Shown here: piece after piece, positions 2,124 to 52,975 of the stretch | Layout of the letters: each line of letters opens with the position of its first letter | Position numbering within the stretch: position 1 is the first letter of the stretch | Source of the DNA: a virus | Length of the DNA stretch: 64,000 nucleotides | Virus record (IMG/VR): IMGVR_UViG_3300014050_000004 | Coordinates: 1 to 64,000 of that record | Strand: one strand, 5' to 3' | Made by a program: the position numbers and the translations under genes | Notes under the pieces: generated by a model | The model's input: only the letters and a program-made list of their open reading frames with translations | Database searches by the model: none | What the model was told of the DNA's origin: nothing

Positions 2124-2900
2124 TCACCCTGCTTTCTTTTTCTCAGCAACCCTTTTCAGGTCTGCCTCACTCACCCCTTTCACCTTGCCCGCACGAATCG
2201 TATCGGCCACCCTGGCGTTTTCCTTCTTGTTAAATTTCTTCAGTTCCTCCTGGCTTTTGAGAACGGACTCCACTGGATCTTTTTTGGTCATCCTGTTCTT
2301 CGGAGGAACCGAAGCTGTCGAGGTCTTGTTGGCCTTATGGAACCTGTCCGAAGCCTTCAAACGAATCATTTGAGCTTTTTCCAAAGCAGCCTCAGCTGCG
2401 TATCTCCTGTTCTGAGCCTCTGGTCCCTTCTTCCCTTTGGTCTCTGCCATCACTTTCTTATGATTCTCCTCTGCCTTTTTCAGGAGGGTCTCTGCCGCTT
2501 TCCACTTGTCTCTAGCCCCCTCAATCTTACTCCGGGTGGCTTCTCTTTGGAGGTCAGCCTTCTCTTGCGTCAATTTAATAGCTTCTCCGTGAAGCTGAAG
2601 AGCTCTGTCGCGGAATCCGTTGCTAAGTTCCCTCTTAGAACGCGAATGGAGATCTTCGATCTTATCCCCGAGCTCTTTGATTTTGCCCGCTTTGTTCAAT
2701 TCCGGTTTACTCTCCGGAGCATCTTTAGCACCTGTCTCGGCCCCTTTCCGGCATTTTCCCCTGGTGCCGTAGGTGCTCCCGTCAGGACGCACACAACGCG
2801 TGAAGTCGTAGGATTCTCCCTCAGCAAAATTCTGCGACTGACTCTGCGCCGTTAAGTATCCATAGATTTCTAGAGCCTCTTCGGAAAAGTATCCTTTCAT
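2124..2900 (-). CDS. FTRC-motif protein with GxF leader and basic coiled-coil C-terminus
   Basis: MKGYFSEEALEIY...NFAEGESYDFTRCVRPDGSTYGTRGKCRKG. Confidence 0.85.
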   Translation of the reverse strand: MKGYFSEEALEIYGYLTAQSQSQNFAEGESYDFTRCVRPDGSTYGTRGKCRKGAETGAKDAPESKPELNKAGKIKELGDKIEDLHSRSKRELSNGFRDRALQLHGEAIKLTQEKADLQREATRSKIEGARDKWKAAETLLKKAEENHKKVMAETKGKKGPEAQNRRYAAEAALEKAQMIRLKASDRFHKANKTSTASVPPKNRMTKKDPVESVLKSQEELKKFNKKENARVADTIRAGKVKGVSEADLKRVAEKKKAG

Positions 2901-2905
2901 TACGA

Positions 2906-3187
2906 TTAGATTGGAGATATATCAGGGTTATACCCTTTTTCTTCGGAATGAATCCAAACCTTCAACCCCAGAACATACTTCCGTAGTGTTTCCGCTTGGT
3001 CAGCATGCCATGTGTTTCCGGTCTGAAAGTGTAGTCTCATATGCTCGTCGATGGCATTGAGACACTGTTTGATAACAGGGTTCCACGGTTCCCGAGTCGG
3101 TGTGTCCCAAGTTCGCCTGTTACCTGGAGGGTCTATCGCAAGCTGTTTAGTCTCTGGCAACGCACCCTCTAAGAGGTGTTCTATCAT
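2906..3187 (-). CDS. Hypothetical protein, 93 aa
   Basis: Overlaps the stop of the upstream gene (ATGA-type coupling); fills the gap in the operon. Confidence 0.75.
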   Translation of the reverse strand: MIEHLLEGALPETKQLAIDPPGNRRTWDTPTREPWNPVIKQCLNAIDEHMRLHFQTGNTWHADQAETLRKYVLGLKVWIHSEEKGYNPDISPI

Positions 3188-4752
3188 AGTTTTCCTTTTT
3201 CGTACATCTCAATCAGGTGTTTCATATCCATCCGAAGATCCTCAGCCCTTCGAGACCCGAACCCATCAAAGGACAAGCGACCTCTGCTGTCGCCCGTCAT
3301 CCTTCTGAACATATCTAGGTAGGTATCTCTAACCTTGCCAGTTTTAAGGTAGTCGCCATATTCTTGATCTACGGCTTTTTTGACCAACTTCAGAAGTTTA
3401 TCTATCTCAGGCTTTCTCTGTTCTCTCCAGCCACCAGCGGCTTTCAATTTCCCCTCGGCTGCAAGGATATTTTTGTACAGAGGCGGTTTCCTGAACTGGG
3501 ATATCATTTCAGTGTATCTTTTTCTAACCTCCTCAAGTTCACCGGAAACTCTTTTCACATCGGACGCCAATTTCTTTCTGCCTGCACCTCCCAACAAAGT
3601 CCTCTTTGAAAGAGATTCATGAATCTGATTCAGATCCTTCAGAGTGTTCGATATATCCTCCAGCCTTCTCTCTGCCACTTGCTCAAGATCTTCCTTCTTG
3701 TTCTTCAAATTGAGCAGGCCTTTTGCCCTTGCAAAAGTTCTTCTATCTTCCTCTTTCGGCAAGAGTTTCCTCAATTCTTGACCTGCTGAGGAAATTGTTG
3801 GGGGTTCTCCCCTATCCTTGAGGTTCTTCAACCCGTCAACTGCCAAAGATAACGCTCCAAATTGCTCCAACTGTTTCACTGTGGGAGAATAAGAAGGATT
3901 ATCAATCTTTGACTTGAAGCTTTCCAGCTTTCTGGAGGCTTTTTCCAAAGGTGTGCTACCACTTGGCAAAGGTTTATTCGGATTGTTCAATGCCACCCTT
4001 GTTCCCTTTCGACATTGACCTGCAGTGCCATAGGTAGTTCCGTTAGGTCTTTCACAGCGGGTGAAATCTTGAAATTCATCATTCTCGGAAAAGTTCCCTT
4101 TTTCTACCTTCCTTGCTACATTAGCCAACCTTGACAAATAGGGATTTTTCTTAAACTCTTTTCCAAGACCCTCAATATCTCCTGAATCTATGATTTTCCT
4201 GATTGCACTGCTACTCGCACCGGAGGAATCTCGAGCTACAGTTGAGGTTTGAACTCCAAGAGACCTGCCAACACTGTTCAAAAACTTTTCTTGATCGGCC
4301 CCCAAAGTAAACAGAACTTTCTCTTTGCCAAACTTCTCTGCCAAATCTGATAACACTCTGGTGGCTGCTGTGCCTTTCGTGATCTTAACTCTAGACAGAT
4401 CTACTCCTTCATCCCTCAGAACGGCCCTAAGCATCTGAGAACGTAAATCTGTGTCCACATTCTCCTTGCCTTTGCCCATGACCACATGGACAATCGGAGC
4501 TTTCTGCAACATGTCCTTTATTAACTTAGCATGGCCACTATGAGGTATATTGAATCTCCCTTGAGTTACCGCAGCTTTGAAAGGATATTGTTTCTTCCCC
4601 TCGAGACCCTTTTTACAGTTCCCTTTTGTGCCATATGCCGAACCATCGGAGCGAACACACCGAGTGAAATCGTATCTCTCCTGTGGATCGGAAAAGTGGT
4701 CTGCAAGTTCACGATACAGATCCAAAGTGTGGTTGTCAAAAGAACCTTGCAT
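3184..4752 (-). CDS. Protein with two FTRC motifs flanking an HxGH nucleotidyltransferase (cytidylyltransferase-like) domain
   Basis: GRFNIPHSGHAKLI, LGADQ and ASSSAIRK motifs; FTRC copies at 4606-4668 and 4003-4065. Confidence 0.88.
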   Translation of the reverse strand: MQGSFDNHTLDLYRELADHFSDPQERYDFTRCVRSDGSAYGTKGNCKKGLEGKKQYPFKAAVTQGRFNIPHSGHAKLIKDMLQKAPIVHVVMGKGKENVDTDLRSQMLRAVLRDEGVDLSRVKITKGTAATRVLSDLAEKFGKEKVLFTLGADQEKFLNSVGRSLGVQTSTVARDSSGASSSAIRKIIDSGDIEGLGKEFKKNPYLSRLANVARKVEKGNFSENDEFQDFTRCERPNGTTYGTAGQCRKGTRVALNNPNKPLPSGSTPLEKASRKLESFKSKIDNPSYSPTVKQLEQFGALSLAVDGLKNLKDRGEPPTISSAGQELRKLLPKEEDRRTFARAKGLLNLKNKKEDLEQVAERRLEDISNTLKDLNQIHESLSKRTLLGGAGRKKLASDVKRVSGELEEVRKRYTEMISQFRKPPLYKNILAAEGKLKAAGGWREQRKPEIDKLLKLVKKAVDQEYGDYLKTGKVRDTYLDMFRRMTGDSRGRLSFDGFGSRRAEDLRMDMKHLIEMYEKGKL

Positions 4753-4774
4753 TCAAATGGTTAAGCTACCACTT

Positions 4775-4783
4775 AGTTTACCC
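4775..4783 (-). promoter_or_regulatory. GGGTAA motif (putative late promoter)
   Basis: GGGTAAACT, 23 nt upstream of ATG 4752. Confidence 0.7.
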
Positions 4784-4801
4784 TTTGGTCACTTTGGTGT
4801 T

Positions 4802-5374
4802 TCATTGGGCTGAGAGTCTGTCGACCCTCCCGATTTCTCTAGGATCCGAAGTAGTTTTCAAATCCTCCGATCCCAACCTTCTCGTCAAGTCTGCAATCGC
4901 TGTGGAATACCTTGCTTGCTCCTTCATCGTAGCAGCATCATCCATTTTATCTTGAAGCTCCCTCAGCCTCATTTGCAGAGTTCTTCTCAGCTTATTTCTC
5001 TTGTCATTCTCAACCCTGAGCATCGAGTTTCTGTCTCTGGTTGCCAGTTCTTCGTCTGTGGCCTTTAGGTTAGATTTCAGATGACCCACTTGCTCTACGG
5101 AGAGCTTATTTTTGACAGCACTCTTGATAGCTCCTTTGACTTGGGAATTCACTTCCTGAAGCTTAGGTGTATCCATATTTGCAATTTGCTGTTCGGTGAG
5201 CTTTCTGTCCATCAGCAAAGGGTCTACCTCAACACCTTTCTTGCATTTACCAGAAGTTCCATAAGCTGTGCCATTTGGACGGAGGCAACGAGTGAAGTCG
5301 TATTTGTCGGAGGCGAGTCTGTCCATAAAGCCAAAGTGTGTAAATAAGGTATACCCTTTTTCAGTCTCAGACAC
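4802..5374 (-). CDS. FTRC-motif protein with coiled-coil C-terminus
   Basis: KYDFTRCLRPNGTAYGTSGKCKKG. Confidence 0.85.
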   Translation of the reverse strand: MSETEKGYTLFTHFGFMDRLASDKYDFTRCLRPNGTAYGTSGKCKKGVEVDPLLMDRKLTEQQIANMDTPKLQEVNSQVKGAIKSAVKNKLSVEQVGHLKSNLKATDEELATRDRNSMLRVENDKRNKLRRTLQMRLRELQDKMDDAATMKEQARYSTAIADLTRRLGSEDLKTTSDPREIGRVDRLSAQ

Positions 5375-5381
5375 TCCGAAA

Positions 5382-6872
5382 CTAAAGACTAAGCATGGTC
5401 AGATGCTTCTTGGCACGAGTCACTTGGACATAGCAGAGATTCTTCTCTTGCGAAATCTCCCAGTCTTTCTTCGCCCAACGGCTGGGGCTGTACTTGTCCA
5501 TGCCCAAAGCGAACACCCTGTTCCACTCTCTGCCCTTCGCTTTGTGAATGGTTGACAAAGTGAGAACTTTCTTCTGATTGCCATCGGAGTCAGAGAACAT
5601 TTCTCTGATGTTGCGAATCAGCTTCTCAATCGAGTCAGAACCTTCGCAGTTGTCAATCAAGATGCGGAGAGTTCCAACTTGATCCTCAATTGTGGCACAC
5701 CGATCGTTTTGGTCCCGGTCTTGAGCCTTTTTGATCTCTGTGTTTTCCCACGCAGAAAGCTTCTCCTCAAGTTGAGCAACGGTTTTAACCCGTTTCCAAC
5801 GCATTGCAAGTTTGACTAGCCCTTCGCCGATTGAGCGACCTTCAACACGGCACGGAATGCTCTCACGAATCAGCTTGTAAGCAAGCTCGACCAAGGGCTT
5901 GGTATTCCGGCACAGGATTGCATCCTCTTCCTTGAAGACCTTGTTTTCAATGGCTTTTTCCACGGTGAGGGAGTCTACAACTCCTTCAGGGGCAGTCTCA
6001 TGGGCTTCAATGTGCTCCACCCACTGCTGAGCCACGGAGACAACACTCTTGGGACACCTGTAGGTTACTGTCAGCGGGAGCTCCGAAGCTTGGAACTCCT
6101 TCTTGATGTTTTCAAGGGAGATGTGATCCGCCCCTGTGAAACCATAGATAGCCTGGTGCTCGTCTCCTACAGCAACCAACCTGCCTCCGGGCTTCATCAT
6201 CTTGCCCATCATAAACCTTCGCACAAAATTGGCATCTTGTGCCTCATCCAGAAACACCCAGTCGTATTTTGTGAACGTCAGGTTGTTGACAAGGGGACCG
6301 TAGATCATATCATCAAAGTCCACAACCTTGCTGAGCAAAGTGTTGCTTCGATCAAGTAATTTTTGAGCTTCTCCGATGGCTTTTGAGTAGGAGGTATTGT
6401 CGGGCAGCAGGTCTTCAAGAGAGTGGTGAGAAATCATTGCATCCCAGCTAAAGGAGGGATCCACTCGGAAACCAAGCTGTTTTGCCATGCTTGCGGCAGA
6501 TATGCAGAAACGTCGGATTCCCCAATCCTCAATGTGCTCCTCTGCGATAGTCTGGAGCTTGCGAGAATCAACCTTCAATCTTTTGTAAGTTGCTCTCAAT
6601 GCCGCGAAGCCGAAGGAATGACAAGTTCCTGTTTGTACCCGGTTTTGCAGCCCGAGGGGAGCTGTTCTCTGAGCGATTTCCTCTGCAATAGCCTTGTTGT
6701 ATGCGCAAAATGCTACATTCCCGGAGGTTTCCGGCAACATGTTGAGCAGCAGGGTGGTCTTGCCACACCCAGCGGCAGCTTTAACAATCAAATTGCCTTC
6801 ACCGTCGCGCACCCAGTTTTTCGCGCACTGTTGCTGGGGAGAGAGGGAGAGGACCATAGGTAGCTTTTGCAT
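5382..6872 (-). CDS. UvrD/Rep-like SF1 DNA helicase
   Basis: AAAGCGKT, DEAQD, VGDEHQAIYGF, STIHKAKGREW and YVQVTRAK motifs. Confidence 0.93.
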   Translation of the reverse strand: MQKLPMVLSLSPQQQCAKNWVRDGEGNLIVKAAAGCGKTTLLLNMLPETSGNVAFCAYNKAIAEEIAQRTAPLGLQNRVQTGTCHSFGFAALRATYKRLKVDSRKLQTIAEEHIEDWGIRRFCISAASMAKQLGFRVDPSFSWDAMISHHSLEDLLPDNTSYSKAIGEAQKLLDRSNTLLSKVVDFDDMIYGPLVNNLTFTKYDWVFLDEAQDANFVRRFMMGKMMKPGGRLVAVGDEHQAIYGFTGADHISLENIKKEFQASELPLTVTYRCPKSVVSVAQQWVEHIEAHETAPEGVVDSLTVEKAIENKVFKEEDAILCRNTKPLVELAYKLIRESIPCRVEGRSIGEGLVKLAMRWKRVKTVAQLEEKLSAWENTEIKKAQDRDQNDRCATIEDQVGTLRILIDNCEGSDSIEKLIRNIREMFSDSDGNQKKVLTLSTIHKAKGREWNRVFALGMDKYSPSRWAKKDWEISQEKNLCYVQVTRAKKHLTMLSL

Positions 6873-6878
6873 ACCTTT

Positions 6879-6907
6879 ATTATAGCGGTTGCCTCACAAA
6901 AAAGCAA
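6879..6907 (-). promoter_or_regulatory. Sigma70-type early promoter
   Basis: TTGCTT (6902-6907), 17-nt spacer, TATAAT (6879-6884). Confidence 0.75.
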
Positions 6908-6909
6908 GG

Positions 6910-6947
6910 GGTTTACCGAACCTTTCCTGTTCGGTTTACCGAACCTT
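6910..6947. repeat. 15-nt direct repeat with an embedded hairpin
   Basis: ggtttaccgaacctt at 6910-6924 and 6933-6947; the minus strand forms GTTCGG-TAAA-CCGAAC. Confidence 0.7.
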
Positions 6948-6948
6948 C

Positions 6949-7965
6949 TTACTCAAGCTCCACGTAGAGGGTGCCATTTTCACCCTTATACACCTTAGTC
7001 ACTGTTTGCTTCGTCCCTGGGGGCAACAATCCTTCCTCCTCCGCCGGGTACTTTGAGAGAGAATGAATGGGAGTCATACTATTACTTCGAGATATGAACA
7101 CCACCCCTCGGTTGGACCCATAAAGAAAGCTTGAAGCTACCTTTTTCTCAGCACTGTACGAACCGAAGCCCTTGTCACTTATTTTGTCCCCCGGCTTGAG
7201 CTTTTCAATCTCGTTATACAAGTCGGCACGGCCAAGAAGGTTCATGCCTCTATAGAATTCCACACCATTCTCGTTCTTAGGTAGTTTTTCAATAGCAGCT
7301 TTCAACTTTTTGTAAGCTTCCTTCGATTCCTTTGTAGAAGTACACTCTTTTGGTCTCCTTAGACATGTGTTTAGAACTTCGTAGCTCCCGGGACCATCTG
7401 TTTCTTTTGTATAAGTGAGTATTGCTTCTCTGTCTTCCTCTGATAAAGGAGCACTCTTTTGTTTACGCGTGCTCTCATCCAGCCAGCGACGCTTTTCTTT
7501 ATCCTTTTGTTCAGCAGTTTTTAACTTATCCTCAATCTCCTGACTGGCAGTTTTTCCTTGTGAGGAAGCCTCATATTTAACCAAGGCATCGGCCACATCT
7601 TTGGACATTTTTGCAGCCTCATCTAATTTCCCTTGACTGACAAGTTCCTGTTGCTTTTTCACCAAAGCAGAGTAATGCTCTTTCGGATCCGCCTCTCTAT
7701 TGGGCGCTGATGCTTGGAGCTCCTTTCGAGCTTCCTCTTTGGTTTTTTCGCCTTCAATAACTTCCAGTGCCAGACGGGCTTTCTTATTTCCTGCTTTGGC
7801 TTTTTCTTGCAAAGTGTTCATAACTTTTGCACTCACTTCCACACCTTTTTTGCACTTCCCTGCTGTGCCGTAAAAGGAGCCGTCGGGTCTCTGACAACGA
7901 ACGAAATTTAGAAAGTCTTGAGTTTCCTTGTTGAAGGATCCCCCAATTGTGGCAATGTTACGCAT
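6949..7965 (-). CDS. FTRC-motif protein with C-terminal VIP2/C2-type ADP-ribosyltransferase
   Basis: R-S-E triad: FYRGM, KGFGSYS, EEEGLLPPG; N-terminal FVRCQRPDGSFYGTAGKCKKG. Confidence 0.88.
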   Translation of the reverse strand: MRNIATIGGSFNKETQDFLNFVRCQRPDGSFYGTAGKCKKGVEVSAKVMNTLQEKAKAGNKKARLALEVIEGEKTKEEARKELQASAPNREADPKEHYSALVKKQQELVSQGKLDEAAKMSKDVADALVKYEASSQGKTASQEIEDKLKTAEQKDKEKRRWLDESTRKQKSAPLSEEDREAILTYTKETDGPGSYEVLNTCLRRPKECTSTKESKEAYKKLKAAIEKLPKNENGVEFYRGMNLLGRADLYNEIEKLKPGDKISDKGFGSYSAEKKVASSFLYGSNRGVVFISRSNSMTPIHSLSKYPAEEEGLLPPGTKQTVTKVYKGENGTLYVELE

Positions 7966-7990
7966 AATGCTCCATTACGACGAGAACTCT

Positions 7991-8797
7991 TCATCGATAC
8001 GGGAACTCTTCATCGATAAGTTCCTTAGCTTTATAGATCAACTTTTCAAAGGTTTTCGGTCCTGATCTACGAACCTTGGAGCTAAGGGAATAAAACATGT
8101 CGGCCCCGTCATAAAGAGAGTTTTTTTCCAGTCTGATTGCTATGGAATTGAGAGTTGAGGCAGCCTCATCCCTGGCAGCTTTTGCATTGACTCTAGCATT
8201 ATCAAAGTTTAGGATGACAGGCTTATTCTGCGTCTTGTCCCACTTGATATTGCCTCCGTGGAGGTCTCCGTGGCTAACGCCTTTGCTATTAAGTTGTAGG
8301 GAAGCTTTATACGCTTCTTTTTCTCTCCAGACCTGATCTGAGGACAGTTTCCTTAGTGCTTCTTGTTCTTTCCGCAACTGATTTATGGACAGTTCCGCTG
8401 GTGCTTTGTTGGACTGCCCAGGGCGGGGCAATGCTTCAATGTCTGCTACATCCTTCTTCTCCATAACCTGGAAGCCCACACCTTTCTTAGATATTCCGGA
8501 AGAGTGCAATCTCGGGGCCAGGCCCATATTTGCTGCTATTGAATGGGCCCGAGCAGCTTCCTCGCTATACTTACCAACTTTCAGAACCTTGCCCTTGCCA
8601 ATGTCATAAACCTTACTCCCAGAAGAGGACATCTCGCTTTTTTTCTTGGCAGCTTTTTCAGGTCTCCCCTTGCCTGGAATCTTAGCTTCTGTTTCGGTGC
8701 CTTTTCTGCACTTCCCTTTTGTCCCGTACACGGAACCGTCGGGTCTCACACACCGTGTAAAGTCGAAGTTTTCTGAGTTAGATTTAAAGGGGTTCAT
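7991..8797 (-). CDS. FTRC-motif protein with atypical (RIO/APH-like) kinase domain
   Basis: KVLKVG, LAPRL and GVSHGDLHGGNI; the DFG position reads ILNFDNA. Confidence 0.82.
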   Translation of the reverse strand: MNPFKSNSENFDFTRCVRPDGSVYGTKGKCRKGTETEAKIPGKGRPEKAAKKKSEMSSSGSKVYDIGKGKVLKVGKYSEEAARAHSIAANMGLAPRLHSSGISKKGVGFQVMEKKDVADIEALPRPGQSNKAPAELSINQLRKEQEALRKLSSDQVWREKEAYKASLQLNSKGVSHGDLHGGNIKWDKTQNKPVILNFDNARVNAKAARDEAASTLNSIAIRLEKNSLYDGADMFYSLSSKVRRSGPKTFEKLIYKAKELIDEEFPYR

Positions 8798-8830
8798 GAA
8801 AGTTGGTATACAAATTGTGATCGCTCAAAT

Positions 8831-8838
8831 ACTTACCC
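8831..8838 (-). promoter_or_regulatory. GGGTAA motif (putative late promoter)
   Basis: GGGTAAGT, 34 nt upstream of ATG 8797. Confidence 0.65.
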
Positions 8839-8908
8839 TTCCTTGAAGGAAGCCTTAATAGAATTACTCAAATACTTCGCTTTCTTTGCAAGCCTTTGAC
8901 CAACCTAT

Positions 8909-9232
8909 TCAAATCTCTTTGCCAGATCCTGCATATAGATTGCCATCAGGCCTCTGACAACGCGTATACTCATAAAGTTCTCCGAGAATTTCATAAACTT
9001 TCTGAGAAGTTTCCTCGGAGTAACCCAGAGATACCAGGTTTTCACAATGGTTGGAGGACTTTTTTGCCATGGACAAGGCTATTGCAATTGCTTGCTTTTT
9101 GGACTTGACAATCTTTCCCTCTTTGCCTCCTTTTCCCTTGCCCGAATGAAGTGGTTTCGGATCATGGTGCTTCCATCTGTGCATCACCTGGCCAACCACG
9201 TCCTTGTGGTCTCGAAAACTATGCTTTTTCAT
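8909..9232 (-). CDS. DUF6496-like small basic protein ending in a degenerate FTRC motif
   Basis: VMHRWKH...LHSGKG...KSKKQAIAIALS; C-terminus YTRCQRPDGNLYAGSG. Confidence 0.78.
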   Translation of the reverse strand: MKKHSFRDHKDVVGQVMHRWKHHDPKPLHSGKGKGGKEGKIVKSKKQAIAIALSMAKKSSNHCENLVSLGYSEETSQKVYEILGELYEYTRCQRPDGNLYAGSGKEI

Positions 9233-10469
9233 ACATTTGTCTCACATCAAGGGGAGACCCTGCCTTGCCGCCGAGATCCGGAGAGAAAGATGGTCCCATA
9301 TCCAGGAACTTTCTGTCCTTCTGGATCTCCTTAACAATCGACTCTACTTTTTTCATGTCATTGGCAGAAACCTTGTCCTTCTTGCTTGCTCTAATTGCAG
9401 AGGAAAGCTGCTCAAGCTGGTCTTCTTTGCTCTTCAAAGACTGCTTGTAGGGTTTCTCAATCTCTGTTAACACATTGATGTTCTTGTCTCTCAGTTTTTT
9501 GACTTTTTCGGCTGCCTGTTGTATCTTCGACAATCTGTCCTTAACCTTTTGGTCATTTGGGGCGTACCCCAAGTCCATCTTGTTGGACTTACTCTTCAAA
9601 TCTTTTTCAATGTTAAACAAAATTGCTCCGGCTTTTTGTAACTTTGCGTCTCTCTGCTGAGCACTCTTCCTTTCGGCAGCAGCTCTCTCTTTGTTCCCCT
9701 CGAGCATTTTTCCGGCAAGTATCCACATCTGTGTATCCTTCTCTTTACTACCTCTATCCCAAAGCTCACTAGCAAGCTTTCTCTGTTGAACAGACATGGG
9801 TCCTTTTTCTTGCGATTCCCTCTTTCTCACAAGTTCCAAATCTTTTGTGATTCGGCTCTTTGCAACGTCCTGAGCCATGGCAAGAGAACTTGGGAATTTT
9901 CTTGGCATCCTACCATTGTTGTACTCTTGAGTCCACAGATTTCTGAGCTCCATGGGAGGCATCTTTCTCAGCTTCGTTGTTTCCTCTTTGGCTCTTTTGA
10001 TCAGAGCCTCTCTCCTTTCAGCGGAGGACATCTCACTCAATTTCTTGCCAGTTTTTCCAGGTCTCCCTTTCCTTGGAACCCTAGCTTCTGTCTTACCAGT
10101 GGCCACAACCTCCTTGCCACCCTTCCCAACAATCACTTCCCCCTTTGGAAGCATTTTTGAGAGTTGGGACATGGCTTTGTTTTCGTCAGACGCTTTCGCT
10201 CTTGCGGAGGTTTCGGTGCCTTTTTTGCACTTGCCTCTTGTTCCGTACACAGAACCATCCGGGCGAACGCAACGGGTGAAATCGTAAGAACCTAAGAGAG
10301 TATCTACAGCCTTTGAAATATATGGATATCTAACTCCGCACTCTTCTGAGAAGGAATACCCCTCTCCTTCGAGACCTGATGCTTCCCCTCTAAGCTCTAA
10401 AGCGTTTTCTAAATCACCCTTCAGCAATTCTGTGAGAGTCTCAAGGTAATACCTGTCAAGTTCATTCAT
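9219..10469 (-). CDS. FTRC-motif protein, Lys/Glu-rich helical C-terminus
   Basis: SYDFTRCVRPDGSVYGTRGKCKKG at 10218-10280. Confidence 0.85.
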   Translation of the reverse strand: MNELDRYYLETLTELLKGDLENALELRGEASGLEGEGYSFSEECGVRYPYISKAVDTLLGSYDFTRCVRPDGSVYGTRGKCKKGTETSARAKASDENKAMSQLSKMLPKGEVIVGKGGKEVVATGKTEARVPRKGRPGKTGKKLSEMSSAERREALIKRAKEETTKLRKMPPMELRNLWTQEYNNGRMPRKFPSSLAMAQDVAKSRITKDLELVRKRESQEKGPMSVQQRKLASELWDRGSKEKDTQMWILAGKMLEGNKERAAAERKSAQQRDAKLQKAGAILFNIEKDLKSKSNKMDLGYAPNDQKVKDRLSKIQQAAEKVKKLRDKNINVLTEIEKPYKQSLKSKEDQLEQLSSAIRASKKDKVSANDMKKVESIVKEIQKDRKFLDMGPSFSPDLGGKAGSPLDVRQMYEKA

Positions 10470-10496
10470 TGGGGAGACAAATCGTAGGCTACTTTA

Positions 10497-10506
10497 ATAT
10501 TTACCC
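10497..10506 (-). promoter_or_regulatory. GGGTAA motif overlapping the Gly-stop of the upstream gene
   Basis: GGGTAAATAT, about 28 nt upstream of ATG 10469. Confidence 0.65.
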
Positions 10507-11535
10507 TTCCTCCAAGGAGCGTTGGATAAGATAGTCTACTTGGTTCGCCCTCTTAGAAAATCTATAACCGGACAATTCAAGACTTTTTGCTAAGGAGTCC
10601 ATGAGGCGGACGATAGCGTTATCTTCAGACAGATTTTTCCATTCCTTGGTTTTCATGTATTCTTTTCTATTGGGGTGGTACCATTTTGGAAATGCCGCCT
10701 CCTTGATAACCTGTGCAACCTCTTCCGCCTCCTTGGCTGTGTCCCTGAACCTCTTCCCAAGCTTCCTTAGTGATTCGGTATCTTTAGGGTAATCATGATA
10801 AAAGGAATCTTCAAGATCTATCAAAAACTTGGCTTTTCTCATTGCCTCCCGAACTTCTGGAGTGGTTGACTTTCTAATTCGCACGGCCTTGATCGATGGT
10901 TCATAGCCCTTGGCCTCAGGGTTCTTTTTAAGATTCTCGAGCTCTGTTAGAGAATTCCTCAACATTCCGTACTGTTCAAGTTGTTTATTGGATGGAGTTA
11001 CCTCAGGGTCTGAAATGGCGGATTCGTATCGTTTCAGTTTGGTCTTTATTTTCTCCATTGGAGTGTCTCCGCTGGAAAGTGGTCTTTTAGGGTCGTTTAG
11101 GGGGACCTTATTAGTCTCTACTCCTTTCTTGCAGCTCCCAGCAGTGCCATACACTGAACCATTTGGTCTTTCACAACGGGTGAAGTCCATCAGATCAAAG
11201 TTTTCGGAATACCTAAACTCTTCAATTCGAAGTCTCATGTCTTCCCTGAAGACAACCTCGGATTTTTTAAGTAGAGCTTCTGCTAGATAAACCTTTTCAA
11301 GGTTCTCGTCGGTGGGCGCTTTTTCGTATCGCTGTTCAGCCATTTCGAAGATACTCTGAGCTTTTTCGAAATGTTTCTCGGCTTTTGACTTTTTCTTTGT
11401 TGGAACCTTTGTCTCCTTGACGGACAAAGCTGTTTCCGCAAAGTTGAACATTTCCCCGTCCAGTTTTGGAACAGTGACTCCTTCAAAAGAGTTGTAGTAA
11501 CTCTCCACTGACTCCACTGAAAAAGACCCTTGCAT
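10501..11535 (-). CDS. GxF-leader and FTRC-motif protein, paralogous to the second module of 3184..4752
   Basis: MQGSFSVESVESYY...NFAE...YSENFDLMDFTRCERPNGSVYGTAGSCKKG...PLNDPKRPLSSGDTPMEK. Confidence 0.85.
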   Translation of the reverse strand: MQGSFSVESVESYYNSFEGVTVPKLDGEMFNFAETALSVKETKVPTKKKSKAEKHFEKAQSIFEMAEQRYEKAPTDENLEKVYLAEALLKKSEVVFREDMRLRIEEFRYSENFDLMDFTRCERPNGSVYGTAGSCKKGVETNKVPLNDPKRPLSSGDTPMEKIKTKLKRYESAISDPEVTPSNKQLEQYGMLRNSLTELENLKKNPEAKGYEPSIKAVRIRKSTTPEVREAMRKAKFLIDLEDSFYHDYPKDTESLRKLGKRFRDTAKEAEEVAQVIKEAAFPKWYHPNRKEYMKTKEWKNLSEDNAIVRLMDSLAKSLELSGYRFSKRANQVDYLIQRSLEEG

Positions 11536-11570
11536 GCTAGTTACGAACGGAATTTCTTTTGTTACTCTTA

Positions 11571-11579
11571 TCTTTACCC
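11571..11579 (-). promoter_or_regulatory. GGGTAA motif (putative late promoter)
   Basis: GGGTAAAGA, about 36 nt upstream of ATG 11535. Confidence 0.55.
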
Positions 11580-11633
11580 CTGATTTCCCTTTTAACTTTA
11601 TCTATTATCTTAATGCACTCTTTCACACTTATA

Positions 11634-12356
11634 TCACGCAATGATAGCATACCCTGAGCCATCTCCTTCCACTGTCCACCTTGACTTGAGCAAACTTTTG
11701 CTGTATAACTTTGATTCCCCATTCACAGACTGGTAGGTTCCTGAGCTATGGGTGATCTCTCCCCAAGGATCATGAACAACGTACCAAGCACCACCGGGTG
11801 CGCTTGAATCCTCTTTTTTCCCAATAACTATGATCCAATGTCCATCCCCTGAAGGGGCATTTGCTGGGCCCTTGTGGAGGATGCCGATTGGCACAGGTTT
11901 GTTCTGCCAAAGTTGGGAATCCAGCTGAGAGAAAGTAGCATTTGTAACAAACTTTGTTTTCAAGCCAAAAGAGGCCAATGCTTGGGTTTGTACCGCCGGA
12001 TAAATGCTATCTCCAATCGAAAACACCCTCTTCAAGTATGCGTCATCTCCTTTAGGTCCAGGTAAAGTTCCGGGTTTCAGGAATTCCAGCAGCATTGCAC
12101 AGGAACTGCTGAAGCAAGTTCTTGAGGCATCTGTGTAATTGTCTCTTTGGGAGAAGTAAGGAACTTTTAAAACCTTTGAATTGCTGGTTTCGCCGGTTCG
12201 ATACTTCTTGACCCAAGTGGCTTCATCCGCAAACAAGTTCGGGTTCAAGGGGGCAACTGCTTTAGCAAATTCGAGTAAAGCTTCTTTTTGGTTCTTGTTT
12301 GTGCTTCTGAAATTGGTTACAAAGTCCAGAAACTTTTCGGGTGGAAATTGAGGCAT
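11634..12356 (-). CDS. Peptidase C39-like cysteine peptidase, possible endolysin or virion hydrolase (likely start MPQFP)
   Basis: VPYFSQRDN...TCFSSSCAM...GHWIIVIG...VHDPWG. Confidence 0.85.
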   Translation of the reverse strand: MPQFPPEKFLDFVTNFRSTNKNQKEALLEFAKAVAPLNPNLFADEATWVKKYRTGETSNSKVLKVPYFSQRDNYTDASRTCFSSSCAMLLEFLKPGTLPGPKGDDAYLKRVFSIGDSIYPAVQTQALASFGLKTKFVTNATFSQLDSQLWQNKPVPIGILHKGPANAPSGDGHWIIVIGKKEDSSAPGGAWYVVHDPWGEITHSSGTYQSVNGESKLYSKSLLKSRWTVEGDGSGYAIIA

Positions 12357-12373
12357 ATTCTGCGCAGATAAGG

Positions 12374-12583
12374 TTAACACCAACAAGAACCTAAGGGCCA
12401 CATCTGACCCTCGGTGGGTATGCAAATGGGGTTGGTTGTTGAACTGAGCAGGTTTTGGTCAGTTATGGGAGAGAACCCGGAGAAATTTTCCGTCGCTGAG
12501 CTAAGCAAAGGTTCCTCTATGAGAGAGAAGCTTTGGGCGATCTCCGAAGCACTGGACAATCCCAGAGGAGTGATCTCTGCCAT
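12374..12583 (-). CDS. Hypothetical protein, 69 aa
   Basis: Starts 2 nt after the stop of the upstream gene; fills the operon gap. Confidence 0.6.
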   Translation of the reverse strand: MAEITPLGLSSASEIAQSFSLIEEPLLSSATENFSGFSPITDQNLLSSTTNPICIPTEGQMWPLGSCWC

Positions 12584-12584
12584 A

Positions 12585-13466: not shown

Positions 13467-13489
13467 TTAAAATCTGTGTCTTCAAGGTA

Positions 13490-13498
13490 AGTTTACCC
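13490..13498 (-). promoter_or_regulatory. GGGTAA motif (putative late promoter)
   Basis: GGGTAAACT, 24 nt upstream of ATG 13466. Confidence 0.7.
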
Positions 13499-13516
13499 CC
13501 TCATACAAATGGTACT

Positions 13517-13538
13517 AAAAAAGCCCGCCGAAGCGGGC
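13517..13538 (-). terminator. Rho-independent terminator after hsp20
   Basis: GCCCGC-TTCG-GCGGGC followed by a T run on the minus strand. Confidence 0.88.
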
Positions 13539-13555
13539 CTTACAATTTCTGAGTC

Positions 13556-13927: not shown

Positions 13928-13995
13928 TTTTCTCAGGGCTAAAGAGCAATATGTGAGATATGTTGGTTACCCAACATTGTTAGTTTAGTCAACTG

Positions 13996-14766
13996 CTAAG
14001 GAAGTAAACTCAGCTCTTTCTGGTACTGCATACCTGTCAAATTCTCATGGTCAAGGACATCTTGTTTCTTTCTTGAAGGAGGGTTCCTGTACATACTCCT
14101 ATACTTTCTCACTGTTTGGACGTAAAGGTCTCCATCAAGGTCCGGATTGTCCCAATCTATGAACTTACTGGCCTTGTTCAGGTCTTGAATCAGTTTCCGG
14201 GGGTTTGTTTCGAATGGGGCTGAAGCTCCGAAGTCAATCAATTTCACATTGTCTTTGTCGACTATAAACTGAAGATTGTGAATGTCTCCATGGAAGAACC
14301 CCATCTTGTGAAGGTTTTTGAGAGCCTTGGAAGAGTTTAAAGACTGCCTTGAATTCATGGGCATATCCCCTTCCTGTTGTTGGTAACCTTCCCACAAAGG
14401 TTTACCTTTCGCTCTTTCCATCTCTATGTGTTTACTGGAATGAGAAATAACTTTGGGAGAACTCCCTAGGTTACCCATTCTAACTGCAACCTCAACTTCA
14501 TACTCACCAAATTTGTCTTTTCCATCCCCTCTTGATATTAACTCTTTCACAACTCTCTTTTCGTCAGGGCTGAATGATACTACCCCATAAAAACCTTTGG
14601 CCTTTGGTTCCCACCCCTTGTATCTCTCTGGTTTATACTCGGATTTGAGAGAGTCAGTGATCCTTGCCAAGCTTTGCGAGACCGAAGCACTCAGTGTCAC
14701 AGAGCACTTTTTGCCCTTGTTGATGCAGGACTCACGGCAGGATTTCCCCTTTATGCACTTTTTCAT
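13996..14766 (-). CDS. Four-Cys-leader protein kinase-like protein
   Basis: KKCIKGKSCRESCINKGKKC; GFYGVV, VVKE, HGDIHNLQF, LIDFG. Confidence 0.87.
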   Translation of the reverse strand: MKKCIKGKSCRESCINKGKKCSVTLSASVSQSLARITDSLKSEYKPERYKGWEPKAKGFYGVVSFSPDEKRVVKELISRGDGKDKFGEYEVEVAVRMGNLGSSPKVISHSSKHIEMERAKGKPLWEGYQQQEGDMPMNSRQSLNSSKALKNLHKMGFFHGDIHNLQFIVDKDNVKLIDFGASAPFETNPRKLIQDLNKASKFIDWDNPDLDGDLYVQTVRKYRSMYRNPPSRKKQDVLDHENLTGMQYQKELSLLP

Positions 14767-44634: not shown

Positions 44635-44657
44635 TGATGAACATAAAGATTGTAATG

Positions 44658-44667
44658 ATTTTTACCC
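44658..44667 (-). promoter_or_regulatory. GGGTAA motif (putative late promoter)
   Basis: GGGTAAAAAT, 24 nt upstream of GTG 44634. Confidence 0.7.
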
Positions 44668-44668
44668 C

Positions 44669-49477: not shown

Positions 49478-49524
49478 TTTTTGTCTGCTAAAGAGCTTTA
49501 CATGAGCACAAGGGTGCCCATATT

Positions 49525-49532
49525 ACTTACCC
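49525..49532 (-). promoter_or_regulatory. GGGTAA motif (putative late promoter)
   Basis: GGGTAAGT, 48 nt upstream of ATG 49477. Confidence 0.6.
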
Positions 49533-49535
49533 TTT

Positions 49536-49700
49536 TCAGAGATACCTGCTGGCTTCCAAGGTTTCTTCGCTCACTTTGCCTTCCCTTGCTAATTTGTCTG
49601 CTGTATTGAAGGCTAGTGAAGCTTGCTCTTGTTTGTCCGGATCCCTACGAAGTCTCTTGTAGAGATCAATTAGCTCAATGTACTGTTTGTCAGATTCCAT
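49536..49700 (-). CDS. 54-aa protein missing from the ORF track, paralog of 51918..52109
   Basis: MESDKQYIELIDLYKRLRRDPDKQEQASLAFNTADKLAREGKVSEETLEASRYL; overlaps the kinase stop. Confidence 0.8.
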   Translation of the reverse strand: MESDKQYIELIDLYKRLRRDPDKQEQASLAFNTADKLAREGKVSEETLEASRYL

Positions 49701-51051
49701 CGTATAGTGTGTTTATGATTTCCATTGCTTTTTGGTTGGTTAGTTTACCCCAAGCTCCCTTATTATAGAAGCTTTCGGCATTCCGTATACCAGAAGACAT
49801 CACATCTGCTATCTCATTGTCAGACATGCCCATCTCCTTCATGGTCTTTTTGACCCTGTTCAGGTTTGAGTACATCTTTCTTAGATTCGCAGGTTGATCC
49901 TGATCTGGGTAAGAGAGTCCACTCAACGGGAGATTAGCTGCTTGCACGTCTTTGTTCAAGCCGCCAGTAACAACAGAGCCTCTGGGAAGCACCGATGTTT
50001 TGACAATTGCTGACAGAGCCTCTGACAAGGCAGCTCTAGGGTTGTCCTGAGCCAACCCGAAATCCACAAGCTTGCTGGTTCCTTTCAATGGGTCAACTAT
50101 GACATTTCTGCCATGCAAATCGTTGTGAGCTATGCCCATCCTGTGAAGACGCGCTCGAGTTTCCCAGTATATGTCACCTGTTGTCTTTCCGGTGCGTTCT
50201 TTGAGGCCATTTGGAAGTAAGGGAGAGGAAATTTCGAAACCTTTGACCTTCTCCATTGCCACTCTGCCATAGAATGTGTCAATAGAGGCGAAAGTTTCAA
50301 TCCTTCTTTTTGAATCAAGCTCCCCGCAGATGAGACGTGGCCCTATTCCGTTTTCTCCTGCTTTCTTCAAAATGTCTATCTCTTTCTTGCCAAGTTCTCC
50401 TCTCTTGACCACTACATCCCCGTCAAATAGGACACTTCCGAAACCGCCGCTCTTGCCGTTCTTCCCCCTACGCGAATTATTCTCCCAGTCGTAGTCGTCC
50501 TGAACCCCTTTGACAAACTTATCAGGGAAGAAGCTCTCGTCGAAATTCCTAGCTTTTCTCTTTGTCTCTCTCGTTAGAACTCCATCAGGTTTTTGAGTCT
50601 TTTTGAGACCCAAAGCCTCATCAAGAGAGTCCAACTCCCTCTGCAAAACCTTCTCCCTTTCCTGAGCTTTGGCTGTCCCCAACTTGGCATTTTTAGCTTT
50701 TTCTTTTCGAACCTCTTCCTTCCTTTGTTTGGCCCTTTCTATGAGACCTTCCACGTCGTTGCCTATTTCTTTCCGCTCAGAGTCCCCGAGGCGCAATGCC
50801 TTTGCTAGCCCCTGAACCTGAAGCTTCCTGGAGGGAGTGTTGATTGGGTCCTCTCCCTTGAGCATTCTTGACACATCATCTAAGACATCATCATTGGTGC
50901 TCTTCGCTGTCGGAAGAGACACATTGAAAAGACCATTGATGACACTCCTCAAAGACCGAGAGACAGGTCTTGGCAAAGAGGACCTACACGTTGAATTTCT
51001 TGCTATGCATGTTGAACCGCACACCTTACCTTTTATGCACCTTCTCTTCAT
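49690..51051 (-). CDS. Four-Cys-leader protein kinase-like protein
   Basis: RCIKGKVCGSTCIARNSTC; GGFGSV, VVKRG, HNDLHGRN, LVDFGLA. Confidence 0.9.
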   Translation of the reverse strand: MKRRCIKGKVCGSTCIARNSTCRSSLPRPVSRSLRSVINGLFNVSLPTAKSTNDDVLDDVSRMLKGEDPINTPSRKLQVQGLAKALRLGDSERKEIGNDVEGLIERAKQRKEEVRKEKAKNAKLGTAKAQEREKVLQRELDSLDEALGLKKTQKPDGVLTRETKRKARNFDESFFPDKFVKGVQDDYDWENNSRRGKNGKSGGFGSVLFDGDVVVKRGELGKKEIDILKKAGENGIGPRLICGELDSKRRIETFASIDTFYGRVAMEKVKGFEISSPLLPNGLKERTGKTTGDIYWETRARLHRMGIAHNDLHGRNVIVDPLKGTSKLVDFGLAQDNPRAALSEALSAIVKTSVLPRGSVVTGGLNKDVQAANLPLSGLSYPDQDQPANLRKMYSNLNRVKKTMKEMGMSDNEIADVMSSGIRNAESFYNKGAWGKLTNQKAMEIINTLYDGI

Positions 51052-51060
51052 TCCAGCTCC

Positions 51061-51486
51061 TCAGAAAGTGTCCGATTCGAGCATCTCCGCATATTCAAAT
51101 GCAAGGGATTCCAAAGCAGCTATCCTGTCAGTCAAAGAACTCAGTTTTTCTGAGTAGGATACTTCTTGCCCAGCTGCTAATCTGTGTTCATCATCTTTCT
51201 TCCTTGCGAGATCCTGAACTACCATCTTCGCGTCAATGTCCTCCCTCTCTTTAACCAAATTCTTGATTTCTCTCATTTGATTTTGCAAAGCCTGGAAAGC
51301 TCCCCTCTGCCTCGACAGCTTCATCTTCTCCTGCAGAGCCTCAATCTGTTCGGAAAGCTCTCTGTGTTTTTGTCCCAACACTTCGTATTCGTTGAAGCTT
51401 GCTTTTAGAGTGGATACATGCTCTGGTTCCAAAATGGTGCCTTTTGCATAATCCGTAGGCTTGTAAACCGGTTTCCTTGAACTCAT
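51061..51486 (-). CDS. Coiled-coil protein, 141 aa
   Basis: Heptad-rich; contains SYSE and EYAE motifs. Confidence 0.8.
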   Translation of the reverse strand: MSSRKPVYKPTDYAKGTILEPEHVSTLKASFNEYEVLGQKHRELSEQIEALQEKMKLSRQRGAFQALQNQMREIKNLVKEREDIDAKMVVQDLARKKDDEHRLAAGQEVSYSEKLSSLTDRIAALESLAFEYAEMLESDTF

Positions 51487-51500
51487 TGTTAGAAAAGGAT

Positions 51501-51887
51501 TTAATTCATTTTACCCTTTTTCGGAGCTGCCTTGCCAGTGCCAGCCACAGATCCCCAAGATACCAGGATGGGTTTCCCTCCTTTGATGGCCCAACCAAAC
51601 TTTTTTCCCGCTACCGACACAGGTTTGTTGTTCTGGACGGAGGAACCTTGCCCAGATGCTGTTTGTTTCAGCTTTCTCTCTTCATCCGTTTCTTCCCCAA
51701 CTTGTTGGTTCCCGGAACTGTCGACTCTTCTGCACAAGCCCCAAATCATCTTAGTGCCAGGGGGACAAGGGGAACCTGCCGGAGGTTGTTGTACGGGCTG
51801 GGATGTAGCGAAATCCCATTCAAGAACGGTATAGTCTCTACCCTCTACCAATCCATCCACACAAGGTATGTCGAATTGTCCAATCAT
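51501..51887 (-). CDS. Small protein with GxF-like leader and CPPG...CRR motif
   Basis: MIGQFDIPCVDGL...WDFA...SPCPPGTKMIWGLCRR. Confidence 0.75.
   Translation of the reverse strand: MIGQFDIPCVDGLVEGRDYTVLEWDFATSQPVQQPPAGSPCPPGTKMIWGLCRRVDSSGNQQVGEETDEERKLKQTASGQGSSVQNNKPVSVAGKKFGWAIKGGKPILVSWGSVAGTGKAAPKKGKMN
51508..51516 (-). promoter_or_regulatory. GGGTAA motif (putative late promoter)
   Basis: GGGTAAAAT, 22 nt upstream of ATG 51486. Confidence 0.7.
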
Positions 51888-51908
51888 GTTTGTCTCTGCG
51901 TATATACG

Positions 51909-51917
51909 ATCTTACCC
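51909..51917 (-). promoter_or_regulatory. GGGTAA motif (putative late promoter)
   Basis: GGGTAAGAT, 22 nt upstream of ATG 51887. Confidence 0.72.
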
Positions 51918-52109
51918 TTACAAGTAATCAGAGCCCAATACAATTTCCCTTCTGACATTACCACTTTTCTTGATCTTCATGGCAGCCTTTAGAAATTCGT
52001 TGGCTTCTGGCCCCATGCCTACTCTCCTGGCTTGTTTGTACTTTGCCATCAAAAACATGTACTCTTTTTCTTCGTCGTTCATATCAGAAACCTCTTGAAA
52101 TTTCACCAC
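51918..52109 (-). CDS. Small helical protein, paralog of 49536..49700
   Basis: EYMFLMAKYKQARR...GNVRREIVLGSDYL. Confidence 0.78.
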   Translation of the reverse strand: MVKFQEVSDMNDEEKEYMFLMAKYKQARRVGMGPEANEFLKAAMKIKKSGNVRREIVLGSDYL

Positions 52110-52975
52110 TTGACCTTGTCAGCCCAGTACGCACTTGAGGATGGTCCTTTCTCTATGTTCTTAGCGTGGCGGGCTTGAAAAGACTCTCTCCTGGCCTTGT
52201 ACGCTTCGCTCTCTCCTTCCTTTTTCGGAGAACCCTTGACTCCTTGTTGACCGAACCTTTTTATCTCTTGAGTGCCGCCAGAAGAAACTTCTTCCTTCCC
52301 TCTGTAACAAGCCTTAACTATGTGAGATTTGGTCGGATGGTCAGGAGTTGCCTTAGGTTTGTTGCACTCAAGTTCGTCTTTGTTCACCCTTTCGTAAAAC
52401 TCAGATATAACCTCTTCGGCTCTCTTAATTCTCTCCTTAAGCAACTCTGATTGCTCCTTGTGGAACTTGAATTTTTTGAGTATGAGATTGATCTCGGCTG
52501 CCGGCCCTGATCTACCCCCAAGCTTCTCATACTTCCTTTTGGCTTCTTTCATGGCTTCGTTATGCTCATCAAGCTCTCCTTTCATATTCTTGAGCTTTCT
52601 TGGGCTGATTTTGCCAAGTTGAGTTTGTGGTTTTGTAGGTTGACTCTCTCCTAGCCATTCCCTGGCCTGCTGTTTCGCTTTTTGGAGTGTTAAACCCTCC
52701 TTCTTTTGTTTGCCAACCGTCACAGTATATCGGGCCTGCTTACCGGGTTCTCTTATACCTCCCCCTCCAGTAAATGCATCCTCTGCCATTATAGAGCCAA
52801 CATTGCGACCTTGGTCGTCTTTCACAGAAAACAGCCCAGTCTCCCTCCTTTGAATACTGACGGCGGACCCTTTGCGACAGGTGCCAGCGGTCCCATAGGT
52901 TGTTCCATCCGGGCGCTGGCATCTGGTAAACTCATGCACAGAAGCAAGAATGGAGGGGTTAATGCTTCCAAACAT
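52103..52975 (-). CDS. FTRC-motif protein with a C-terminal basic phage domain
   Basis: HEFTRCQRPDGTTYGTAGTCRKG; NKPKATPDHPTKSHIVKAC...RFGQQG...SFQARH...AYWADKVKW. Confidence 0.87.
   Translation of the reverse strand: MFGSINPSILASVHEFTRCQRPDGTTYGTAGTCRKGSAVSIQRRETGLFSVKDDQGRNVGSIMAEDAFTGGGGIREPGKQARYTVTVGKQKKEGLTLQKAKQQAREWLGESQPTKPQTQLGKISPRKLKNMKGELDEHNEAMKEAKRKYEKLGGRSGPAAEINLILKKFKFHKEQSELLKERIKRAEEVISEFYERVNKDELECNKPKATPDHPTKSHIVKACYRGKEEVSSGGTQEIKRFGQQGVKGSPKKEGESEAYKARRESFQARHAKNIEKGPSSSAYWADKVKW

Follow-up and report, generated by a model that had tools for sequence, protein, structure and literature searches.

Positions 1 to 64,000 of the IMG/VR virus record IMGVR_UViG_3300014050_000004 (hereafter the window), which are the opening 64 kb of a phage genome of 118,465 bp in a single contig, contain nine open reading frames (ORFs) that share a tag of about 55 residues attached to differing protein parts. 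We propose that this tag is a capsid address: the tagged proteins, made late in infection, would be loaded into the prohead, cut, and injected with the DNA, a reading to which we give a probability of about 45%. Late timing, packaging, cleavage and injection are steps that we infer; a late-type upstream element, the presence of F-[SA]-E-G-E in the head protease/scaffold protein and the basic charge of the tagged proteins provide indirect support for head loading. In the libraries searched, the tag has neither a name nor a description.

The closest cultured relative of the phage is the estuarine cyanomyovirus Synechococcus phage S-CBWM1, with 58% identity in the terminase, 67% in the major capsid protein and 60% in the portal. 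Nearly all genes of the 118,465-bp genome lie on the minus strand; they include those for a sheath, a baseplate wedge protein, a tape measure, tail fibres, a gamma-type DNA polymerase, a ribonucleotide reductase and a split psbA.

A conserved hairpin forms the core of the tag

The sequence-only reading had described a repeated 21-residue motif with two cysteines, written here as F-T-R-C-x-R-P-[DN]-G-x-x-Y-G-T-x-G-x-C-[KR]-K-G. A six-frame regular-expression scan and translation of the corresponding coordinates recovered all the copies it had listed, nine full and one truncated, on the minus strand and in nine ORFs (Table 1), one of which (3184-4752) holds two. Eight of these ORFs form an island (2124-11535) flanked by an endolysin-like gene and psbA, the ninth (52103-52975) sits between terminase and tail-fibre genes, and the sequence from 11.6 to 52.1 kb that parts the cluster from the outlying copy is unrelated. 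Twelve of the 21 positions are invariant. The copies have a mean identity of 65% at the nucleotide level and 76% at the amino-acid level and use different codons at 65% of their identical residues; selection therefore acts on the protein, as had been suggested. A hidden Markov model (HMM) of the hairpin scores the copies at E 1e-14 to 1e-19 and found no other match in the whole genome. In the truncated copy (Y-T-R-C-Q-R-P-D-G-N-L-Y-A-G-S-G-K-E-I-stop) no alternative frame restores the motif, and relatives of its ORF 8909-9232 run on into a full hairpin and cargo (P0004, P0009 and P0018).

In the gap that follows the truncated hairpin (8798-8908) a promoter-like stretch occurs twice, as A-A-G-C-G-A-A-G-T-A-T-T-T-G-A-G and as G-G-G-T-A-A-G-T-A-T-T-T-G-A-G, a doubling that suggests a recombination scar at a tag junction. 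Together with the clustering of the tag genes in one island and with a further place in this phage where a stop and a new gene stand instead of a hairpin that relatives have, it would agree with the tag repeat being a mere by-product of recent duplication or recombination in a variable island, with no common function. Such an origin is contradicted by the codon differences given above and by conservation across the 934 clusters described below, and we find it scarcely credible.

The tag comprises a leader, an F-S-E element and the hairpin

The unit of conservation turned out to be larger than the 21 residues first recognised, which are only its core. In the family alignment the tag consists, in order, of an acidic leader helix, an [FY]-[SA]-E(-G-E-T) element and a basic C-x13-C hairpin. 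It opens with M-x-G-x-F-S-E-E-x-L, the start of a helix of ~15 residues, and continues through a variable stretch and the middle element [DN]-F-[SA]-E-G-E-x to the hairpin, whose consensus is Y-D-F-T-R-C-V-R-P-D-G-x-x-Y-G-T-x-G-x-C-R-K-G-T-E. Among 222 family members, of which 48 have two tags, the median start of the first hairpin is residue 35, and in 91% it starts no more than 80 residues into the protein. Internal hairpins are still preceded by [GN]-[FY]-S-E, be it after DUF6496, after a coiled coil or in the second half of 3184-4752. If the internal tags of such fusions are counted, there are 276 distinct hairpin contexts, and in 174 of them [FY][SA]E lies at most 14 residues upstream, most often at a spacing of 5.

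Modelled alone, the tag is predicted as a helix (residues 7-21) and a small hairpin with a mean predicted local distance difference test score (pLDDT) of 61; modelled on the nucleotidyltransferase it reaches 52-68, with the enzyme domain at ~90. These models fit a docking or processing peptide that is not part of the enzyme, and the tag is probably an appendage needing a partner. In a check set beforehand, the motif had no match in Pfam, NCBIfam, PHROGs or PDB sequences, in keeping with the earlier remark that it is not known to have been described. A PDB-sequence match of the tag at E 0.058 was dismissed as chance, and the ESM Atlas returned only weak look-alikes, namely promiscuous N-terminal hairpins (DUF4124) and also NUMOD3, with template modelling (TM) scores below 0.5.

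The proteins with a hairpin are all basic, with isoelectric points (pI) of 8.7-9.7 compared to a genome median of 6.1. The leader and the leader-only proteins are acidic and scaffold-like; two proteins encoded close to the head and tail genes, 52979-53407 and 55598-56254, are very acidic and have a leader without hairpin. This charge pattern fits basic, DNA-associated internal proteins that carry a removable scaffold-like prepeptide.

The hairpin has two invariant Cys, 13 residues apart, and no conserved His, short of the four ligands of a zinc finger or zinc knuckle. One could imagine the tag as a metal- or disulfide-dependent oligomerisation module or an autoinhibitory prodomain (2 + 2 Cys zinc, or a disulfide) that holds toxic enzymes inactive or paired until they are triggered. 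The exact number and spacing of the invariant Cys, a four-Cys N-terminal module that heads sister proteins in the same phage, the two hairpins per chain in the 48 members mentioned above and an acidic leader that could mask the adjoining basic hairpin are all consistent with this idea. We nevertheless judge it improbable: the hairpin offers no third or fourth conserved ligand, the tag model has no defined fold, and the virion-type upstream elements and the protease/scaffold motif presented below would be left unexplained. A prodomain would also be compatible with packaging, and so is no true alternative to a capsid address; such a role of the Cys pair might equally go along with the cytoplasmic targeting discussed below.

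The tag is fused to different cargo

The claim that the proteins are unrelated downstream of the motif held for most of them: with the hairpin masked, comparison of nine proteins revealed only two similar pairs. The first is 10501-11535 with the C-half of 3184-4752, and the second is a 24-residue basic stretch shared by 7991-8797 (residues 36-59) and 9219-10469 (residues 127-150) at 67% identity. This stretch, A-[KR]-[IV]-P-x-K-G-R-P-x-K ... S-E-M-S-S, lies just downstream of the hairpin.

Two of the three enzyme assignments made from the sequence scored above cut-off. ORF 6949-7965 matches the ADP-ribosyltransferase (ART) families PF01129 and PF03496 with 48.9 and 45.6 bits (cut-offs 22.3 and 23.4; E 1e-12 to 1e-13). 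Its catalytic R, S-x-S and E-x-E motifs (F-Y-R-G, G-S-Y-S and E-E-E-G-L-L-P) are present and conserved in the alignment, which places it among the R-S-E ADP-ribosyltransferases. ORF 3184-4752 matches PF01467 with 25.7 bits (cut-off 21, E 1.4e-5), its H-S-G-H is invariant, and its model matches PPAT and NMNAT structures with a probability of 1.0 and TM scores of 0.5-0.69; by family match, motif and Rossmann-like fold it belongs to the HxGH nucleotidyltransferases. The kinase-like domain of 7991-8797 has the H-G-D-L-H-G-G-N loop and stays just under the cut-off of the APH family PF01636, with 23.0 bits against 23.2. The other cargo consists of Lys-rich, probably helical tails.

Variation at the C-terminus extends to the homologues, as had been anticipated: 218 proteins fall into 66 BLAST clusters by their C-terminal parts. 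Among 150 family representatives we counted 12 ARTs, about 6 kinases, 1 nucleotidyltransferase and 6 proteins in which DUF6496 stands ahead of the tag, so that ART, kinase and nucleotidyltransferase are each a minority of the family cargo.

Family size and distribution

The tag profile retrieved 934 clusters (50% identity) among 1.84 billion representative proteins, 545 of them at E 1e-10 or better, and 147 stretches in IMG/VR contigs of up to 277 kb. The family is made up of uncultured-phage and metagenome sequences and of two proteins of the isolate S-CBWM1, gp39 (annotated as NMN adenylyltransferase) and gp165 (hypothetical), and no member's name in any of these sources refers to the tag. 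ORF 3184-4752 is a homologue of gp39. Both S-CBWM1 proteins are true family members that share the hairpin and, at their genes, the upstream element; that phage has two tag genes compared to nine here, and its database record neither annotates nor discusses the tag. A megablast of the tag region against phage records matched only a piece of psbA. A pattern scan of 185,579 species genomes revealed no family member, and the tag therefore belongs to a lytic phage lineage; four pattern matches were rejected as chance, with no Y-G-T-x-G-x-C after them. Paralogue types have orthologues across many phages, those of ORF 9219-10469 being widespread (P0032, P0065 and others), and the 934 clusters keep the same 12-15 residues. 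Judged from these alignments, the tag is under long-term purifying selection.

Tag genes follow a late-type upstream element

The heptamer GGGTAA[AG] occurs 40 times on the coding strand, and 21 of the 40 copies lie 25-60 nt upstream of an ORF start, where 1.5 would be expected and the maximum in 2000 random placements was 6. It precedes the genes of the portal, the protease/scaffold protein, both tail fibres, a minor tail protein and the endolysin-like protein, several small genes of the head-tail region, and four tag genes (10501-11535, 9219-10469, 7991-8797 and 3184-4752), which the remaining tag genes follow in tight operons. Outside the 25-60 nt range it is found at -101 of the tail sheath gene and at -15 of a homologue of the S-CBWM1 'virion structural protein' gp174. 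In related IMG/VR loci, GGGTAA[AG] stands 15-70 nt upstream of 47 of 80 tag ORFs, compared to 125 of 933 other ORFs on the same strand. S-CBWM1 itself has GGGTAAA at -31 before gp39, gp165, the portal gene and gp168, and also before the protease (-35), tape measure (-36) and endolysin (-30) genes; a block of 40 nt upstream of gp39 moreover recurs upstream of gp168 and gp174. In the same phage the 90 nt ahead of the polymerase, primase and SNF2 genes are free of GGGTAA[AG]; for the other replication genes examined this is true of the first 60 nt, ribonucleotide reductase and gyrA having only a distant copy at about -70. We infer from these positions that GGGTAA[AG] is a putative late promoter core.

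Nine genes carry another element (class 1), in which the palindrome TCGGTwAnCCGA overlaps TTTAC and is followed by a sigma-70-like TATAAT. Its TATAAT lies 5-8 nt before the start codon of near-leaderless genes of the replication region (for example at 6942, 21164 and 22170), and among the nine is the UvrD-like helicase gene inside the tag island. GGGTAA[AG] (class 2) is seen 27-57 nt before virion, lysis and tag genes, for example at 4783, 8838, 13498 and 40534, and further at 44667, 49532, 55246 and 58238. The two classes provide a testable early/late gene map for the lineage.

Leader-like pieces and the F-S-E element recur in the head protease

The gene after the portal encodes an 831-aa protein with a Mu-like_Pro protease domain (PF10123) and a long acidic scaffold-like part. 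Its protease domain ends with F-S-F-S-E; the protein also contains two pieces that resemble the leader (G-E-F-S-E-D-D-I-D-N-L-V ... E-F-S-E) and, about 70 residues from its C-end, L-N-F-S-E-G-E-T, to be compared with L-N-F-S-E-G-E-T-Y-D-F-T-R-C in the tag. F-[SA]-E-G-E-[TS] is found at this same position in 30 of 30 complete protease/scaffold homologues and in S-CBWM1 gp170, and F-[SN]-F-x-E, usually F-S-F-S-E or F-N-F-A-E, marks the protease domain boundary in nearly all homologues. From their sequence these conserved boundary elements look like self-processing sites, and the protease line as a whole is suggestive only. The connection with the head genes is made by the leader and the F-S-E element, and not by the 21 residues on which the sequence-only reading had concentrated. 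Several C-terminal F-S-E or Y-S-E occurrences in other proteins were set aside as random in appearance, and a literature search brought nothing useful on the cleavage specificity of Mu-like_Pro proteases. After the protease/scaffold gene, at 76075-76737 of the genome and outside the window, lies a 220-aa protein with a Cys-rich C-end (C-x2-C ... C-R-C ... C-R-C-R), which has no Pfam or NCBIfam match and which we take to resemble the C-end of MuF/SPP1 gp7 head proteins.

In the mechanism we propose, the scaffold-like leader would bring a tagged protein into the assembling prohead, where the Mu-type head protease would cleave F-S-E behind its Glu, a cut that it probably also makes in its own scaffold part. 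What remains would be a basic, DNA-associated internal protein with the hairpin at its new N-terminus, and this protein would leave the head with the DNA at the next infection. Several observations weigh against this scheme. The tag genes lie in a variable island by the lysis and psbA genes and outside the head module; the F-S-E element is missing from 37% of hairpin contexts; and neither the major capsid protein nor the portal protein has an F-S-E-type site. A leader HMM run against the phage proteome misses the protease/scaffold protein, so that the two are linked by short elements only, and the regular expression for these elements, with 8 matches against 0.25 expected, was written post hoc. 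The timing, finally, is read from the genes behind GGGTAA[AG].

The main rival to a capsid address is a cytoplasmic targeting module, in which the hairpin would bind a common partner, be it DNA, RNA or a hub (for instance the ribosome or RNA polymerase), and would bring the various enzymes and basic proteins to it late in infection, and nothing would be packaged. Arg and Lys abound in the hairpin, the tagged proteins are basic, the ART, kinases and nucleotidyltransferase need a target, and the position of the tag genes and the weak likeness to DUF4124 and NUMOD3 noted above point the same way. Cytoplasmic targeting leaves unexplained, however, the acidic leader, its presence without hairpin on scaffold-like acidic proteins and the F-S-E-G-E of the protease/scaffold protein. 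Late-type elements on host-modifying enzymes also fit pre-loading for the next cycle better, and no known nucleic-acid-binding family matches the tag. On balance we regard this rival as rather unlikely.

Relation to known systems

Loading of the head with enzymes by means of a capsid address would be, by analogy, a variant of a known strategy, that of the T4 capsid-targeting sequence (CTS) and, more loosely, of MuF polymorphic toxins. T4 packages the ADP-ribosyltransferase Alt, and its prohead protease gp21, which removes the CTS, cuts at L/I-x-E; the CTS consensus has about 10 residues and resembles M-K-T-Y-Q-E-F-I-A-E, a pattern to which the tag, M-x-G-x-F-S-E-E-x-L...Y-D-F-T-R-C, does not conform. 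Like the CTS of IPI-III and Alt, the tag is a short shared N-terminal peptide on unrelated proteins, one of them an ADP-ribosyltransferase, with a possible cut after a Glu that has a hydrophobic residue two positions before it (L/I-x-E in T4, F-S-E here), and like the T4 internal proteins the tagged proteins are basic and apparently late-expressed. Their sequences are unrelated, however, and the tag is five times longer, with a Cys hairpin that the mature protein would keep. The T4 protease gp21 is of family S77, whereas the phage studied here is not T4-like and has a Mu-like_Pro protease (PF10123) and the candidate site F-[SA]-E. T4 internal proteins share only a capsid-targeting sequence (PMC3012670). 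In SPN3US, N-terminal propeptides are removed at x-x-E sites, and the head and ejection proteins of phiKZ and SPN3US, which include paralogous head-cargo families, are cut at [A/S/G]-x-E by a protease that also cuts itself (PMC10052503). The tag resembles these propeptides in its candidate removable N-terminal region and repeated x-x-E sites, read here from sequence alone, and differs from them in protease family, motif (F-[SA]-E) and phage lineage.

MuF polymorphic toxins and phage polyvalent proteins are said to have been described by Jamet and by Iyer, both in 2017. The likeness to polymorphic toxins put forward in the sequence-only reading stands as far as the constant N-terminus and the swappable C-terminal enzymes or toxins (ART, kinase) are concerned, and a capsid route is presumed in both. 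It is otherwise loose: no tag region has a Pfam match at E up to 0.1, hence no MuF (SPP1 gp7, PF04233) domain, and no immunity genes are evident in the tag cluster, where one small ORF (2906-3187) was not examined further. The MuF carrier is a folded head protein, whereas here it is a 55-residue peptide and most tag members are small, with a single cargo. By its sequence, by the type of protease and by the lack of a MuF domain, the tag thus falls outside both the T4 CTS and the MuF classes. We tentatively raise the wider possibility of an undescribed, lineage-wide cargo-loading system of non-T4 cyanomyoviruses, in which an acidic, scaffold-mimicking leader, cut at F-S-E by the Mu-type head protease and followed by either the C-x13-C hairpin or the four-Cys module, would load interchangeable enzymes (ADP-ribosyltransferase, kinases, nucleotidyltransferase) and basic proteins into the head for the next cyanobacterial host.

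If the tag is a capsid address, sequence alone would define the injected protein arsenal of widespread freshwater and estuarine cyanophages, covering hundreds of unnamed protein clusters. It would point to enzymes of cyanobacterial host takeover, namely an Alt-like ADP-ribosyltransferase, kinases and a possible NAD- or CoA-type adenylyltransferase, and would, like the T4 CTS, offer a portable peptide with which foreign proteins could be loaded into the heads of cyanophages. The cultured member S-CBWM1, with Synechococcus CBW1002, makes each step testable.

Table 1. Tag and leader ORFs of the window, and late-type elements upstream of tag genes
Feature	Position	Strand	Hairpin	Description
Tag ORF	2124..2900	minus	2742-2804	258 aa; leader helix, N-F-A-E-G-E, Lys-rich basic tail, pI 9.7; leader HMM E 4e-15, hairpin HMM E 1.5e-18
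Tag ORF, fusion, tag 1	3184..4752	minus	4606-4668	522 aa; HxGH nucleotidyltransferase (residues ~58-215)
Same ORF, C-half, tag 2	3184..4752	minus	4003-4065	N-F-S-E-N; coiled-coil tail paralogous to 10501-11535
Tag ORF	4802..5374	minus	5234-5296	190 aa (174 aa from internal Met); coiled-coil tail
Tag ORF	6949..7965	minus	7843-7905	338 aa; C-terminal R-S-E ADP-ribosyltransferase
Tag ORF	7991..8797	minus	8699-8761	268 aa; APH/choline-kinase-like domain (H-G-D-L-H-G-G-N)
Tag ORF, truncated	8909..9232	minus	8912-8968 (truncated)	107-aa DUF6496 protein ending in the hairpin
Tag ORF	9219..10469	minus	10218-10280	416 aa; longer helical leader with Y-S-F-S-E, hairpin at residue 66, basic tail
Tag ORF	10501..11535	minus	11122-11184	344 aa; leader M-Q-G-S-F-S-V-E-S-V, R-Y-S-E-N, hairpin at residue 120
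Tag ORF	52103..52975	minus	52868-52930	290 aa; short leader M-F-G-S-I-N-P-S-I-L, phrog_7595 C-terminal domain
Leader ORF	52979..53407	minus	none	Acidic (pI 4.1); leader W-G-S-F-S-E-D-S-L-R-S-F-S-E-G, HMM E 3.7e-4; directly upstream of 52103-52975; GGGTAAA at 53456-53462
Leader-like ORF	55598..56254	minus	none	Net charge -59; leader-like N-G-D-F-D-T-E-S-I-E-A-F, leader HMM E 0.09
GGGTAAA	4777..4783	minus		31 nt upstream of ORF 3184-4752; putative late-type promoter core
GGGTAAG	8832..8838	minus		41 nt upstream of kinase gene 7991-8797
GGGTAAA	10500..10506	minus		37 nt upstream of ORF 9219-10469
GGGTAAA	11573..11579	minus		44 nt upstream of ORF 10501-11535

Neighbouring genes and a second module

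The psbA gene that borders the island is split on the minus strand into residues 3-64 (1734-1919) and residues 62-107 (742-879), parted by a 223-aa ORF (1042-1713); another open ORF (3-716) continues past the contig end. As the remainder of psbA is absent from the contig, the genome is incomplete. Two group I introns are annotated in the psbA of S-CBWM1; here no psbA intron reached the Rfam gathering score, and no Rfam RNA family was found anywhere in the window. Amid the leader- and tag-bearing genes between terminase and tail fibres lies a DUF5824 protein (E 2e-23; 53377-53904, minus). Also on the minus strand, 54239-55219 encodes a 326-aa protein that has no Pfam or PHROG match, is preceded by GGGTAAA and contains an internal tandem duplication of a unit of ~90 residues (E-F-R-E-W ... 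F-A-G-P-G-M-S-F-P-I ... G-W-E-S-G-L-P-E-S-V-K).

A different N-terminal module with four Cys, K-[KR]-C-x-K-G-K-[SV]-C-x3-C-x6-7-C, is present at 49690-51051, 56739-58223 and 13996-14766, all minus. It heads two kinase-like proteins and the gp174 homologue (48% identity to S-CBWM1 gp174) as well as the S-CBWM1 kinase gp162, and may be an alternative address module. ORF 51061-51486 aligns at 63% identity to residues 2-103 of the family member P0027, in which the hairpin and cargo come next; it stops exactly where the hairpin would be expected to start, and 9 bases further on begins the gene (49690-51051) for the four-Cys module and kinase. From its sequence, this junction looks like a swap of head modules.

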